Positions 12,610 to 59,075 of a stretch of 64,000 nt of DNA are shown piece after piece. Each line of letters opens with the position of its first letter. Positions within the stretch are counted from its first letter, which is position 1. The notes beneath the pieces are model-generated. The model had not been told where the DNA came from. It saw nothing but the letters and a program-made list of their open reading frames with translations, and made no database searches. The DNA is taken from positions 4,544,001 to 4,608,000 of the forward strand of contig OZ244587.1 of NCBI GenBank assembly GCA_965218095.1, given 5' to 3'. The position numbers were made by a program, and so were the translations under genes. This stretch comes from Candidatus Poribacteria bacterium (GTDB lineage Bacteria; Poribacteria; WGA-4E; PCPOR2b).

Positions 12610-12621
12610 AAGGGAATCGCT

Positions 12622-14028
12622 ATGACAAATAAACTCATTTATCAAACATTGGTATTGATCCTCTTGGGGACTGTGCTGATTGTGTGGTTCGGTTGTGGTA
12701 GCAGTGATGATTCCAGCAGCGATAATCCCACGGTGGCAGAAAACGCATCAAGTGACGATTCGATTGCTGAAGTTGCAACCGGTAACCTCAAGGGACGGGT
12801 GGTACGGATTGAAGGCGTGCAGATCGACGTCCAAGTCCTGCAAGATGGCACCGTGATTGCCTCCACCGAAGCTAAGCCCGATGGAAGTTACCAGATCGAT
12901 AACATTAAATCTGGAACCTACACGGTTCAAATCACAGCGAAAGGCTATAAAGTTGTTGAGCAAACCGTGCAGGTCCGCGCGGGTGAAGTTCCGGTGCTGG
13001 ATAACGTAGCACTCGAAGCATTGGAAGCCCCCGTTACCCACATTCGTGGGCTTGTATTAGACCAAGAAACGAAGACCCTCCTCAACGGAGCCCGCGTTCA
13101 ACTCATCAATGAAGCGAGGGTTGTTCGCGAGGTACTGACAAAGCAAACGGGCGTCTTTGAATTTGAAAATGTTCCTGCGGATCAGCAATTCACTCTCATC
13201 ATTGATGGTGAGAAGTACGAGAAACAAGAAATTACCATCAACCCCATTCCCGCCGGTGAAACTGAGAAAGTCGAAGTGGAGCTTGTCCCCCTGCCCAGGA
13301 TACGAGGGCTCTTACTGGATCAAATAACGAAGGACGGTATCCAATCGGCTCATGTTCAACTCATCGAAATGAAGGGGATGATGAACTGGGGCGATGTTCG
13401 TGAGGCAGAGACAAATGCGCTGGGAGTGTTTGAATTTGAAAACGTTCCCACAGATCAGCAATTCGCTCTCATAATTGATATCGATGGATACCAGAAGCAA
13501 GAAATCACCATTAACCCCATTTCAGGCGGTGAAATTGCGAAGGTTGAAGTTGAACTCGTCCCCATTAATCCGGATCAACTCCCCATCGGCGATGGTTTGA
13601 GGGTCGGCGTGGAAGCCCCAGCTTTTAGTCTGCCCGATCAGGACGGAAAGATTCGGACCCTCGCCGATTACGCCGGACAGAAGGTTGTACTGGCTTTTGA
13701 TCGCGGTCGCTGGTGAATATTTTGTCTTGAGCAACTTGTAAAGTTGCAGAACGTTTATAAAGGGATTCAAGCTGAAGATGCAGAAGTGCTCTTTATTACT
13801 TCCGATGCACGACCTGCTGACTTTAAAACAGGCTTCCCAAAGCTCTTAGATCCGAAGACAAAGGCAATTGCGGCTTATAATGCTGCGGATCCCCGTAATC
13901 GCCGGATCGCGAGGCCACTGTACTATATCGTCGACGAAAATGGGGTAATTCGGTGGAAATTTGTCGATGTACGGCTGGCAGGTCGCCTAGATCCGGCTAA
14001 GTTGGTCGACGCGTTAAAAAAATTGTAG
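12622..14028 (+). CDS. Selenocysteine-containing lipoprotein: three carboxypeptidase-regulatory-like beta-sandwich repeats plus an AhpC/TSA (peroxiredoxin-like) domain, 468 aa
   Basis: Lipobox WFGC; APAFSLPDQDG..VVLAFDRGRW-TGA-IFC (UxxC), in frame with ORF 13744-14028; SECIS-like hairpin downstream. Confidence 0.85.
13731..13747 (+). promoter_or_regulatory. Putative bacterial SECIS element
   Basis: GCAACTT-GTA-AAGTTGC hairpin beginning 14 nt after the in-frame TGA (13714-13716), with G first in the loop. Confidence 0.7.
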
Positions 14029-32309: not shown

Positions 32310-33614
32310 TTATGGAATAATCACAGACTGTTTGGCGGACGCACGTTGAATTAGAAATCGGTAAATTTTATCATTCCGCAGCGTGTCCCGAAACTCCTCT
32401 AAACGATTGTTCGCCTTGAGCAGGCTCGCGTATTTTTGAGGGTCTTGATTTTGCTGCTCTGCAATGAGCCGAATTTCTATATCTAACTCATCATCAGTGA
32501 CTCTGATATTCTCACGTTCAGCGATGGCATCAAAGATCCATATCTGTTTCGTTTGCTTGATTGCATCTTCACGCAATTCCGCCGGCAAACTTTTCATATC
32601 TATTCCCGCTTGCTCAGGAGTTTTTCCTTCACGTCTTAATTGTTGCTGAATATTTTGAATGGTTTGCTGCACATGCTGATCGACAATCGACTCGGGAATC
32701 TCAATCGCCGTTTTTTCGATTAACTGTTGAAGGATCTCTTCGCGCTGGCGCTGACGGCGGATTTCCTTCTGTTCCTCGACGAGGTTATTCCAAATTGCGC
32801 CATAGAGCTGATCATAATTTTCGTATTCCAAATCTTTTGCGAATTCATCATCAAGGGGCGGAAGCTGTTTCTCCGTAATCACATGTAGCATCACGTTGAA
32901 TACAGCATGCTTGCCTGCAAGCTCAGGGTTTTCGTGATTCTGATTGAAGTCCACCTCAACTTGCCTGCTTTCCTCAACACGCATACCAATTAACTCGGCT
33001 TCAATCTCCGGTAAGAGCATCCCTTTTCCAACGTCGATATCTGCATCTTCCTTGCGCCCATCCGTAATTGGTTTGCCGTCCACAAGACATTCCCAGTCAA
33101 TCCTCACTGAGTCGCTGTCCTGGACAGGTCGATCCACCTCAAGTGGAATGTATGTCGCATGTTGTTCCTGCAACCTGCGGATGTACGTCTCCACTTCCTC
33201 ACGTGGGACATTCGGAGGAGATTTATCAATAACTAAATCTTCGTATTCCGGGAGGACAAATTCAGGCTTGACATCAATAGTCGCTTCAAACGCAAGGGGC
33301 TGATCCGCCTCAATTTCCATCTGGTTCATGGAGGGCGAAATCTCCAGATTACCAAGAGGAATCAGTCGCTCAGAAATCAAAGCCTGTTCGTAAGCGGGTG
33401 GGACGAGATTTTGGATGGATTCAGCTTTGATGTGTTCTGCAAATCGCGCTTTAAGGATGCCAGAAGGAACTCTGCCCTTCCGAAAGCCGGGAACTGAGAC
33501 TTTTGTTCGCACAGCCTGACAATTGCGCTCAAGCTCTTCATTGACTTCTTCAGCGGAGATTTCAATACGCAAGCGTACACGACTGTTTCCCAGCTTTCCA
33601 ACTTCAACCTTCAA
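32310..33614 (-). CDS. tig: Trigger factor
   Basis: VPGFRKGRVP signature, FKBP domain, LDDEFAK; lies upstream of clpP; TTG start with GGAGG SD. Confidence 0.95.
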   Translation of the reverse strand: MKVEVGKLGNSRVRLRIEISAEEVNEELERNCQAVRTKVSVPGFRKGRVPSGILKARFAEHIKAESIQNLVPPAYEQALISERLIPLGNLEISPSMNQMEIEADQPLAFEATIDVKPEFVLPEYEDLVIDKSPPNVPREEVETYIRRLQEQHATYIPLEVDRPVQDSDSVRIDWECLVDGKPITDGRKEDADIDVGKGMLLPEIEAELIGMRVEESRQVEVDFNQNHENPELAGKHAVFNVMLHVITEKQLPPLDDEFAKDLEYENYDQLYGAIWNNLVEEQKEIRRQRQREEILQQLIEKTAIEIPESIVDQHVQQTIQNIQQQLRREGKTPEQAGIDMKSLPAELREDAIKQTKQIWIFDAIAERENIRVTDDELDIEIRLIAEQQNQDPQKYASLLKANNRLEEFRDTLRNDKIYRFLIQRASAKQSVIIP

Positions 33615-33646
33615 GTAGACCTCCAAATTATCTCAGAAAAGGCATT

Positions 33647-33733
33647 TGGTGGGCGAGGAGGGACTTGAACCCTCACGGGGAGAACCCCAATAGATCCTAA
33701 ATCTATCTTGTCTACCAATTCCAACACCCGCCC
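33647..33733 (-). tRNA. tRNA-Leu(TAG)
   Basis: Cloverleaf with long variable arm, anticodon loop TT-TAG-GA, encoded CCA. Confidence 0.93.
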
Positions 33734-33742
33734 ACATAAAAA

Positions 33743-33819
33743 TGGTGCGCCGTGAAGGAATTGAACCTTCAACCGCCTGATTAAGAGTCAGATGCTCTGC
33801 CTGGTTGAGCTAACGGCGC
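33743..33819 (-). tRNA. tRNA-Lys(CTT)
   Basis: GCGCCGTTAGCTCA...CT-CTT-AA...GGTTCAATTCC...CCA. Confidence 0.95.
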
Positions 33820-33829
33820 AGAAGGAAAG

Positions 33830-33903
33830 CGCGTCCGGAGGGACTCGAACCCCCAACTTATAGGACTGAAGTCTATCGCTCTATCCAATTGAACTACGGA
33901 CGC
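33830..33903 (-). tRNA. tRNA with an Arg-type body and anticodon TCA (putative opal suppressor or decaying tRNA-Arg(TCG))
   Basis: GCGTCCG/CGGACGC acceptor stem, D-loop AATTGGATA (A20), loop CT-TCA-GT, A31-C39 mismatch, 5-nt variable loop, TTCGAGT T-loop, G73. Confidence 0.8.
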
Positions 33904-33981
33904 ATTTCGTAACATTTAAGATTGAATATTGAGGATTGAAAGAGAACACAGTCCATATTCAATAATGCTGTAGACCAATGA

Positions 33982-34057
<76 letters not shown>

Positions 34058-34065
34058 AAGAAAGG

Positions 34066-34139
34066 GGTGGATGATGGGATTTGAACCCACGACCACTTAA
34101 TCCACAGTCAAGCGCTCTACCGACTGAGCTACATCCACC
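34066..34139 (-). tRNA. tRNA-His(GTG)
   Basis: G-1, anticodon loop CT-GTG-GA, C73. Confidence 0.95.
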
Positions 34140-34149
34140 ATAAACGAAT

Positions 34150-34226
34150 TGGCACGCCCGGCAGGATTCGAACCTGCGACCTACTGATTAGAAGTCAGTT
34201 GCTCTATCCAACTGAGCTACGGGCGC
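34150..34226 (-). tRNA. tRNA-Arg(TCT)
   Basis: GCGCCCGTAGCTCAGTTGGATAGAGC...CT-TCT-AA...CCA. Confidence 0.96.
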
Positions 34227-34247: not shown

Positions 34248-34326
34248 TCAGAGCGAGAAAAATCGAACCGCCGACCTTTCTGATCTCCTAGATCGGAACG
34301 CGCTAACCGGGCTGCGCTACGCCCTG
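34248..34326 (-). pseudogene. Aberrant tRNA-Pro-like duplicate
   Basis: 5' 28 nt nearly identical to tRNA-Pro(TGG); anticodon arm elongated, T-stem degenerate. Confidence 0.7.
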
Positions 34327-54025: not shown

Positions 54026-54380
54026 GGGGGTGCAAAGGTTTCGACGGGAGTGGATGATATAAAGGTTGCATGCCGAGGTCTCCGCAGGCCTCGTTAAACA
54101 GGCGGAAAAAATTTAATTGCCGATGAAGAATTGGCTCTAGCTGCTTAATAAAGCAGTTCGTCTCGCTAATTTGCGGTCCCGTCGAGTTAGCGAGACGTCA
54201 TAAAACGGGCTTTGCGCCTTGCTTGGTCTCAAGGGGCAAGCTGTGAGACTCAACTTGAGATAGTCCGCAGCGAATCCGGCATAAGGGAGTCTTGTGGACG
54301 AAACGCTAAAACTTATGCTATGCATGTAGTAGCCTTTATTGAACTGCTCTCGGACGCGGGTTCGATTCCCGCCACCTCCA
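54026..54380 (+). ncRNA. ssrA: tmRNA; tag peptide (A)ADEELALAA at 54119-54148
   Basis: GGGGGTG..GGTTTCGAC 5' end, GGACGCGGGTTCGATTCCCGCCACCTCCA 3' end, G3-U70 pair, tag ending LAA then TAA TAA; adjacent to smpB. Confidence 0.96.
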
Positions 54381-58488: not shown

Positions 58489-59075
58489 CGTTTATCGCTA
58501 TGACTTCTGCTCCCTCTGCTTCAAACGCTTTGTAATCTTTCTGCAACTCGCCAAGCTATTCCATGCAAGGCGGTCACCAACTGCCTCGGTAAAAAACCAG
58601 CACAATCTTCTTTTTCCGGACATAGTCGGCGAAGGAGTGAATCTTCCCATTCGCATCTGGCAGGCTGAAATCTGGGGCTTTTGTACCGACTCTCAAGCCA
58701 TCATCGATGGGGAGTTAATCCGGATCAATGAACGCAAGTTCGACCTCAACCTTTGCCATTTCACCAACTGGAATGAGGTTGATGGGAATTTCCTGCCTTT
58801 TGTATCTCTCGACATTGATGATGACGGTGAATTGTTGATTTGAGGGAACGGTTTCAAATTCAAAGACTCCTGTTTCCCTTGTAACGACTTCACGGACACT
58901 GCCGCCCCTGAATATAGGGAAGCGGAAGTTCTAATGCCTTTGATGTGTCTTGCGGCTCGGTTGGCGTGCCTTATTTGACGACAGGCTCATCGCTGCTGCC
59001 ACACCCGCCCCAAACAAGCATCGAAACTCCCAAGAGCGCCAATACCAAAGTTTTATAAATAGGTCTATTCCTCAT
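58486..59075 (-). pseudogene. Pseudogenised paralog of the 12622 selenoprotein lipoprotein
   Basis: MRNRPIYKTLVLALLG...WGGCGSSD, TGVFEFE, APDFSLPD, VFYRGSW-TGA-PPC; additional TAA/TAG stops and deletions. Confidence 0.85.

Follow-up and report, generated by a model that had tools for sequence, protein, structure and literature searches.

An apparent four-base rewrite of the anticodon arm gives a tRNA-Arg(UCG) orthologue of Candidatus Poribacteria the anticodon UCA and recurs in a second lineage

Why does a core tRNA operon of a Candidatus Poribacteria genome contain a tRNA of ordinary size whose anticodon, UCA, would read the stop codon UGA? To our knowledge, stop-reading tRNAs encoded in the chromosome are very rare in bacteria that use the standard code. 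The window analyzed here is a 64,000-nucleotide stretch that lies in a single 6.35-Mb contig (50% G+C) of the source genome, G000, and its tRNA with the anticodon UCA is referred to as tRNA-X. An earlier note, made from the letters of this DNA, had proposed that tRNA-X derives from tRNA-Arg(UCG) and that it is either a natural opal suppressor or a tRNA decaying only in its anticodon arm. Our findings support the proposed descent, point to a single templated mutation as the origin of the new arm, and favor a poor decoder at most. The coordinates of the features involved are given in Table 1.

Table 1. Features of the tRNA-X locus, with positions counted from the first letter of the window.
Feature	Position	Strand	Basis
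tRNA-X, tRNA-Arg(UCG) orthologue, anticodon UCA, 74 nt	33830..33903	-	ARAGORN, Rfam, operon slot
tRNA-X anticodon U34 C35 A36	33867..33869	-	ARAGORN and sequence reading
Rewritten bases 36-39, AGUC (ancestral GGAU), including A36, U38, C39	33864..33867	-	Orthologue comparison
Bases 30-33, GACU, presumed template	33870..33873	-	Sequence; GACT in every relative with the arm found
tRNA gene operon preceding tig, Arg(TCT)-His(GTG)-Pro(TGG)-X-Lys(CTT)-Leu(TAG)	33647..34226	-	ARAGORN, Rfam; kept in relatives
tig (trigger factor), downstream neighbour, used for tree	32310..33626	-	
Decayed tRNA-Pro relic, operon head	34248..34326	-	ARAGORN Pro(agg), 79 nt

The gene was called by ARAGORN at 33829-33903 of the minus strand, with the anticodon tca and the default label SeC. 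The Rfam tRNA family (RF00005) matched 33830-33903 over the full model (1-71) at 58.3 bits (E 7.9e-12), above its gathering score of 29, and the sole non-standard pair that it flagged is 31-39. The acceptor stem is GCGUCCG/CGGACGC (7 bp), the D stem GUUC/GAGC (4 bp) with the D loop AAUUGGAUA, and the anticodon stem AUAGA/CCUAU, in which A31 stands opposite C39, with the loop CUUCAGU; these are followed by a variable loop of five nucleotides (AAGUU), a T arm of GGGGG-UUCGAGU-CCCUC (5-bp stem) and G73. ARAGORN, Rfam and a direct reading of the sequence therefore agree with the earlier note on the 74-nt cloverleaf, its anticodon and the A31-C39 mismatch, and the ARAGORN calls reproduce the order of the operon that it had described.

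The SeC label is due to the anticodon UCA and to nothing else. As had been claimed, tRNA-X lacks the shape of a tRNA-Sec, an identity that is ruled out by its 7-bp acceptor stem (not 8/9), its 5-nt variable loop and the presence of a separate, true selC. The latter shares the anticodon UCA with tRNA-X but measures 94 nt instead of 74 nt; it lies at G000:C1:2576029-2576122 and adjoins selB. Both selB (353.7 bits) and selA (605.7 bits) are present in G000, as is the RF2 gene prfB (512.6 bits against a cut-off of 370), which also exceeds the cut-off in G006, a relative discussed below. Annotation pipelines should beware of the SeC label that ARAGORN assigns to tRNA-X. Across the whole genome of G000, ARAGORN called 51 tRNA genes and one tmRNA (52 genes), with a tRNA-Arg set consisting of ACG, CCG, CCT and TCT and no Arg TCG. 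Thus, of the genes whose presence elsewhere in the genome had been left in doubt, tRNA-Arg(ACG), selC and prfB exist and a gene for tRNA-Arg(TCG) does not. The tmRNA gene lies within the window at 54026-54380 (+) and encodes the tag peptide ADEELALAA.

G or U at position 36 is a minor identity element of tRNA-Arg, and tRNA-X has A at this position. The Arg identity elements A20 and C35 (PMC12361112, PMC8629427) are both retained, the former in the D loop and the latter in the anticodon, so that charging of tRNA-X with Arg is plausible as a prediction. In G000, the combination of G73, C35 and A36 could also attract TrpRS, judging from general identity rules together with the criteria described in PMC8629427.

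The slot that tRNA-X occupies was surveyed in 40 related genomes of this family and order, comprising 29 loci (L002-L030) and 11 further regions. Of the former, 27 hold Arg(TCG), one holds tca (G006) and one gave no call (G012); of the latter, nine hold Arg(TCG), one has no tRNA in the slot (G002) and one is broken by a contig end (G039). An intact Arg(TCG) therefore occupies the slot in 36/40 relatives, and the tRNA of G039, although cut off at the contig start, retains the ancestral arm. Compared with its orthologues in genus g4, tRNA-X of G000 differs at 5/75 positions, three of them in the arm and two outside it, and the working operon neighbours show 0-7 differences from that genus. The stem damage in G000 is confined to the 31-39 pair. 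Because a TCG tRNA fills this slot across relatives, tRNA-X is the orthologue of tRNA-Arg(UCG), and synteny together with the near-identical body of the orthologues substantiates the descent that had been proposed. The idea that close relatives might show TCG at this position holds for the other species, which keep the ancestral TCG, but not for G000 itself, where TCA is also found in an independent library.

Four genomes of one family (G000, G006, G012 and G002) have lost tRNA-Arg(UCG) or carry it in damaged form, and none of the four has a second intact copy. G012 retains the TCG tRNA, but 4 nt are deleted from its 3' anticodon stem, and in G002, whose genome is rated 94% complete, no match to tRNA-Arg(UCG) was found anywhere. 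To judge from this gene content, tRNA-Arg(UCG) is dispensable in the family of G000, being absent in one member and broken in another. In G000 it is redundant because tRNA-Arg(ACG) and tRNA-Arg(CCG) cover the CGN codons, and a rewritten allele would therefore be tolerated. Beside the empty slot of G002 (L036, 1256-1435), the tRNA-His looks interrupted or degenerate and received no ARAGORN call.

The head of the operon offers what is, by its alignment, a picture of genuine tRNA decay at the same locus. The tRNA-Pro relic has no Rfam tRNA match at E up to 1 and is altered in its anticodon arm, T loop and 3' acceptor strand. Set against this relic, the intact cloverleaf of tRNA-X in G000 fits either continued constraint or a recent event. 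Pro(TGG) sits elsewhere in the operon of family f3 and genus g7, and this position and the relic suggest that Pro(TGG) may have been relocated within the operon by duplication, with subsequent decay of the old copy.

Relative to its orthologues, the arm of tRNA-X has changed from CUUCGGAUCUAU to CUUCAGUCCUAU, which corresponds to G36A, A38U and U39C with G37 unchanged. The new bases 36-39 are the exact reverse complement of bases 30-33. In a pattern scan, the arm was found in 36/43 loci, where it reads either GGAT or AGTC with zero intermediates; the seven loci without a pattern match are that of G002, which has no copy, and those of six genomes of family f2, whose TCG tRNAs have a different arm. 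The picture in the earlier note of one anticodon mutation beside an unrelated mismatch needs revision, since bases 36, 38 and 39 have all been replaced and, with G37, make up one block complementary to bases 30-33.

Quasi-palindromes are known hotspots of mutation by template switching, which can build RNA hairpins (PMC7202029, PMC8794818). tRNA-X resembles the cases described in these sources in having clustered substitutions that are the reverse complement of an adjacent stretch, and it differs from them in that its arms are just 4 nt long and the ancestral complementarity is weak, the mechanism being deduced here from the pattern. In the template register, the ancestral arm forms one Watson-Crick pair, two wobbles and one mismatch, and a quasi-palindrome as weak as this would not be expected to act as a strong hotspot. 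Given an adjacent reverse complement and a cluster without intermediates, we infer that a single templated mutation of the quasi-palindrome or template-switch type is the simplest cause, and not three separate substitutions.

One copying event at the DNA level accounts for all three changes together. Selection for a UCA anticodon needs G36A alone and therefore leaves the changes at 38 and 39 unexplained. Selection for a closed hairpin would keep G36, because the double change at 38 and 39 on its own (closed fold -1.1, MFE -1.9 kcal/mol) closes better than the triple change (closed GAC-UUCA-GUC fold -0.2, MFE -1.0 kcal/mol) in the isolated 17-nt arm.

The UCA form is not an artefact of assembly, because it is matched exactly by a contig from an RNA library. 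In run X1, a sponge metatranscriptome represented by Logan contigs, a 216-nt contig spans 33795-34010 of the window with 0 differences, so that an independent library confirms the TCA at 33867-33869 from which the earlier note had started. The same library yields other contigs with the ancestral letters (two at 33865 and 33867, one at 33864), which are from co-resident relatives. One X1 contig (depth about 27.6) may join G36 and A38 with C39 and may represent either an intermediate or another species in which position 31 is also different. Runs X2 and X6 do not span the anticodon, and X9 contains only a relative with the ancestral letters. All of the RNA-library runs consist of contigs, in which RNA ends, strand and level are unreadable; since DNA carry-over is possible and the ends are not visible, the matching contig is just a weak hint of transcription. 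The sequencing runs that hold the tRNA-X stretch come from sponge or marine samples.

An identical rewritten arm is found in G006, which belongs to genus g7, and in the metagenome contig L034. Exact scans for the derived arm in 185,579 species genomes and a metagenome collection revealed no further lineage, and the fact that just one lineage besides that of G000 carries it argues against a frequent hotspot. As read from these alignments, the change in tRNA-X spans four bases and is seen again in a second lineage, which makes it more than a lone anticodon mutation. G006 and L034 also both lack one G of the T stem, a deletion that is not an assembly slip because it is common to the two.

The two lineages are not sisters. 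In the Tig tree, G000 is sister to genus g4 (90/82) within a clade that includes g6 (100/97), and G006 and L034 are placed elsewhere. The tree of ArgRS, an unlinked gene, groups G000 with g4 (85/81) and G006 with G002 (99/64). A clade of G000 and G006 was rejected by the AU test (p 0.0111, log-likelihood difference 52.3; the group was chosen after the trees had been seen), and the ancestral arm is present in 17/17 genomes of g4 and g6. Position 73 is G in G000, as in g4 and g6, and A in G006, as in g5 and family f3; in addition, the spacers and the operon order differ between G000 and G006. These marks of each gene's own clade, together with the differing spacers and order, make transfer of the whole gene unlikely, so that the recurrence would be due either to a separate origin or to gene conversion over a patch of about 20 nt.

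Candidate donors of the arm were considered and rejected. Five 10-mers from the arm occur in G000 at chance frequency (6-17 matches against about 12 expected), which offers no gene-conversion donor within the genome; the selC loop is unrelated sequence; and the single viral contig containing the 17-mer has no tRNA and represents a chance match. Between the ArgRS sequences, one column is exclusive to G000 and G006, a number that falls within the background of 0-5 observed for other pairs. In the ArgRS tree (loci L086-L115), a branch of ~10 changes/site lies between family f1, whose proteins measure about 590 aa, and families f2-f4, with about 570-587 aa; from these sequences, f1 appears to use a different type of ArgRS.

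The explanation that we favor, and to which we would give an even chance of being right, is that one templated mutation in a redundant tRNA-Arg(UCG) produced a loss-of-function allele or, at most, a weak Arg-inserting opal suppressor, which was tolerated. Its basis is formed by the observed orthology, substitution pattern, recurrence and redundancy, and by the normal UGA stops, RF2 and Sec machinery of the genome. A template switch would have copied GACU (30-33) into bases 36-39 as AGUC, changing UCG to UCA, breaking the loop-closing 31-39 pair, introducing U38, keeping G37 in place of A37 and making the loop self-complementary. The RNA would probably still be transcribed and cut out of the operon, and would probably still be charged with Arg by virtue of A20 and C35. 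It would likely be a poor decoder and at most a weak UGA-to-Arg suppressor, with an effect that is invisible at the level of the genome. The additional damage in the second lineage, where G006 and L034 have lost a G from the T stem, counts for this poor-decoder explanation. Against an accident stands the argument that a rare neutral event should not recur in two non-sister lineages.

What is known of anticodon arms bears on how well tRNA-X could decode. TrmD requires G36 to methylate G37, and with A36 the G37 of tRNA-X would therefore stay unmodified. A37 is a conserved base of the tRNAs for codons starting with U, and it is important that pair 31-39 closes the loop (PMC8219837); tRNA-X has neither of these features of an efficient UGA decoder, with G37 in the loop and A31 opposite C39. 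The canonical arm, weaker than the ancestral one, and the slightly favored closed fold that competes with it likewise speak against efficient decoding. On the other hand, G36A alone turns 5/6 human tRNA-Arg(UCG) isodecoders into working Arg-inserting UGA suppressors (PMC12361112), and some read-through activity of tRNA-X is therefore plausible.

A stronger role is envisaged by a second explanation, which we hold only tentatively and regard as clearly less probable than the favored one: tRNA-X would be a working natural opal suppressor under selection, inserting Arg (or, in G000, Trp through C35, A36 and G73) at a low rate in competition with RF2. U38 and C39 would then tune its activity to a tolerable level, and the two lineages would reflect convergent selection. 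The presence of the same three changes in two non-sister genera, as indicated by the AU test, agrees with this proposal, as do the human suppressors (PMC12361112), the retention of A20 and C35, the cloverleaf of G000, which has remained intact unlike the adjacent Pro relic, and, as a weak hint, the 216-nt RNA-library contig, which contains the UCA form and both spacers. G37 and the open 31-39 pair run contrary to the known requirements (PMC8219837), a T-stem base pair has been lost in G006 and L034, and the ArgRS columns give no sign of co-adaptation.

The use of UGA in G000 also speaks against a selected suppressor. TGA ends 1763 (40%) of the 4415 ORFs with 200 codons or more, ahead of TAA (1482) and TAG (1170), and it is not depleted in comparison with relatives, its share being 0.399 in G000 versus 0.329 in G013 (400-kb sample, n=243) and 0.339 in G006 (181 kb, n=109). 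Nor is there an excess of back-up stops after TGA in G000: an in-frame stop occurs within five codons downstream of 0.210 of TGA, 0.228 of TAA and 0.194 of TAG stops. Together with RF2, selC, selA and selB, these TGA stops corroborate the view that G000 uses UGA both as a stop and for Sec.

In-frame stops that are spanned by paralogues, after a coding-score filter, number 89 for TGA, 129 for TAG and 63 for TAA, all of which are upper bounds. The residues aligned at these stops include Arg at 26 TGA, Gln at 41 TAG and Gln at 21 TAA, where the corresponding codon frequencies are 9.67, 22.07 and 17.58 per thousand. CGA-like TGA stops are accordingly roughly 1.5-fold above the expectation from codon use, which would favor selected read-through; the figure is unreliable, since CpG mutability could explain the excess and the list contains antisense artefacts and multiply broken genes, for instance L168, an antisense frame in a repeat gene, and L170, a TonB-type receptor with two TGAs and another stop.

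A search of 51 TGA read-through candidates against Pfam, with X at the TGA, gave a family match for 16, and in 11 of these the domain spans the TGA. Five of the 11 resemble selenoproteins, namely two AhpC/TSA fusions, a UGSC-family protein, a peroxiredoxin and a formate dehydrogenase; both AhpC/TSA fusions have the motif W-U-x-x-C, and their paralogues also have TGA. A conserved Arg at the in-frame TGA was found in 0/6 of the remaining TGA-spanning candidates, and no otherwise intact gene shows such a codon at a conserved Arg, which is a further point against selected suppression. G000 keeps the standard code, and a trace of read-through is absent from the genome-wide proxies that were run.

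A more specific form of the suppressor proposal, which is doubtful and which we rate a little below its parent, holds that an identical, attenuated opal suppressor was made from the spare tRNA-Arg(UCG) in each of two sponge-symbiont lineages, with low and possibly conditional UGA-to-Arg (in G000, alternatively Trp) read-through alongside RF2 and Sec insertion. If this were true, ambiguous decoding would be fixed in wild bacteria and, in a genome with many interrupted genes, could for instance soften the effect of CGA-to-TGA nonsense mutations.

A third explanation, which we consider improbable, is a single origin of the arm followed by lateral spread among co-resident sponge symbionts through short-patch homologous recombination, with fixation by drift or selection. 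Contigs with the derived and the ancestral arm occur together in one sponge RNA library, bases 27-48 are identical in G000 and G006, and tRNA-X differs between the two at 6/76 positions where the neighbouring Arg(TCT), His, Lys and Leu genes differ at 9-12, all of which would suit such an exchange. The tract would, however, have to be about 20 nt or less, because the own-clade marks (G73 versus A73) lie just outside the arm and the spacers and operon order differ, and neither the viral contigs nor the 10-mers of G000 provided a donor.

Slightly more improbable still is a role outside decoding, in which a closed arm would bar tRNA-X from the ribosomal A site and the molecule might instead take part in operon processing, act as a regulatory target or donate an amino acid to reactions other than translation. 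The alternative GAC-UUCA-GUC fold that the earlier note had pointed out does exist and is slightly favored in the isolated 17-nt arm, where the canonical arm comes to +0.5 kcal/mol (-0.5 kcal/mol for the ancestral canonical arm); the G000 molecule has intact acceptor, D and T arms, and the rewrite occurs in two lineages. These differences amount to ~1 kcal/mol in a fragment out of its context, the UUCA loop closes less well than its UUCG predecessor, and the T stem of G006 is weakened. When whole tRNAs were folded by MFE, the cloverleaf failed to appear in the ancestral as well as in the derived form, and such folds are uninformative in this respect.

A sequencing or assembly error and a reassignment of UGA as a sense codon can both be set aside with hardly any residual probability, the former because three bases are changed, the RNA-library contig is exact and the arm is also seen in an independent MAG and a metagenome contig, and the latter because TGA ends 40% of the long ORFs, RF2 is kept and treating TGA as sense (tables 4 and 25) merely fuses unrelated frames.

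Several known systems resemble tRNA-X in part. Phage T4 has a UGA suppressor derived from tRNA-Arg, a laboratory-selected mutant with a single anticodon change that was described in the literature of the 1970s. Like tRNA-X, it shows a tRNA-Arg of bacterial type becoming a UGA reader by a change of the anticodon; tRNA-X differs from it in being fixed in wild genomes and in its four-base rewrite. Bacteria with a reassigned UGA are not known to keep RF2. The human tRNA-Arg(UCA) suppressors share with tRNA-X the parent isoacceptor, the change from UCG to UCA and the retention of A20 and C35, but they carry G36A alone (PMC12361112), whereas tRNA-X is also changed at 38 and 39, has a broken 31-39 pair, resides on a bacterial chromosome and is known from its sequence only.

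UGA has been reassigned to Trp in Mycoplasmatales and insect symbionts and to Gly in Absconditabacteria and Gracilibacteria (PMC8629427). The tRNA(UCA) of these codes is, like tRNA-X, a cloverleaf of ordinary size with the anticodon UCA; in those genomes UGA is a sense codon (PMC8629427), whereas in G000 it is the commonest stop, RF2 is present and the tRNA body is that of Arg and not of Trp or Gly. In the portion of the Codetta screen of bacterial reassignments on which we draw, UGA is assigned to Trp or Gly only, and UGA-Arg is not listed (PMC8629427). Among the best-matching titles and abstracts, with most subscription journals outside the search, there was no report of a bacterial tRNA-Arg(UCA) or of stop read-through in Poribacteria.

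Codon reassignment has been proposed to pass through an "ambiguous intermediate" stage, and any decoding by tRNA-X would make it an instance of that stage in nature. Should tRNA-X not decode, it would still illustrate cleanly how a single complex mutation can remake an anticodon arm, here with the same outcome in two lineages.

Other genes of G000 contain in-frame TGA codons and merit separate mention. Within the window, the gene at 12610-14028 (+), with its TGA at 13714-13716, consists of CarboxypepD_reg domains fused to AhpC/TSA with the motif W-X-I-F-C, and is a probable selenoprotein gene by its sequence. It has a paralogue at G000:C1:3351213-3352415 with the motif W-X-P-H-C, paralogue alignments also show TGA at this site, and one of the paralogue HSPs falls within the window itself, at about 58490-58906 (-). 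Selenoprotein-like TGA genes, all on the minus strand, are found at G000:C1:3661015-3663732 (formate dehydrogenase alpha subunit), 2609298-2610899 (UGSC-family), 6294074-6294682 (peroxiredoxin, with TGA at the catalytic Cys) and 5450434-5451627 (MetE-like, with Cys in the paralogues). Paralogous genes interrupted by stops are many and involve all three stop codons, as exemplified by L170 (G000:C1:5508300-5510200), which suggests a sizeable pseudogene load in this 6.35-Mb symbiont genome.
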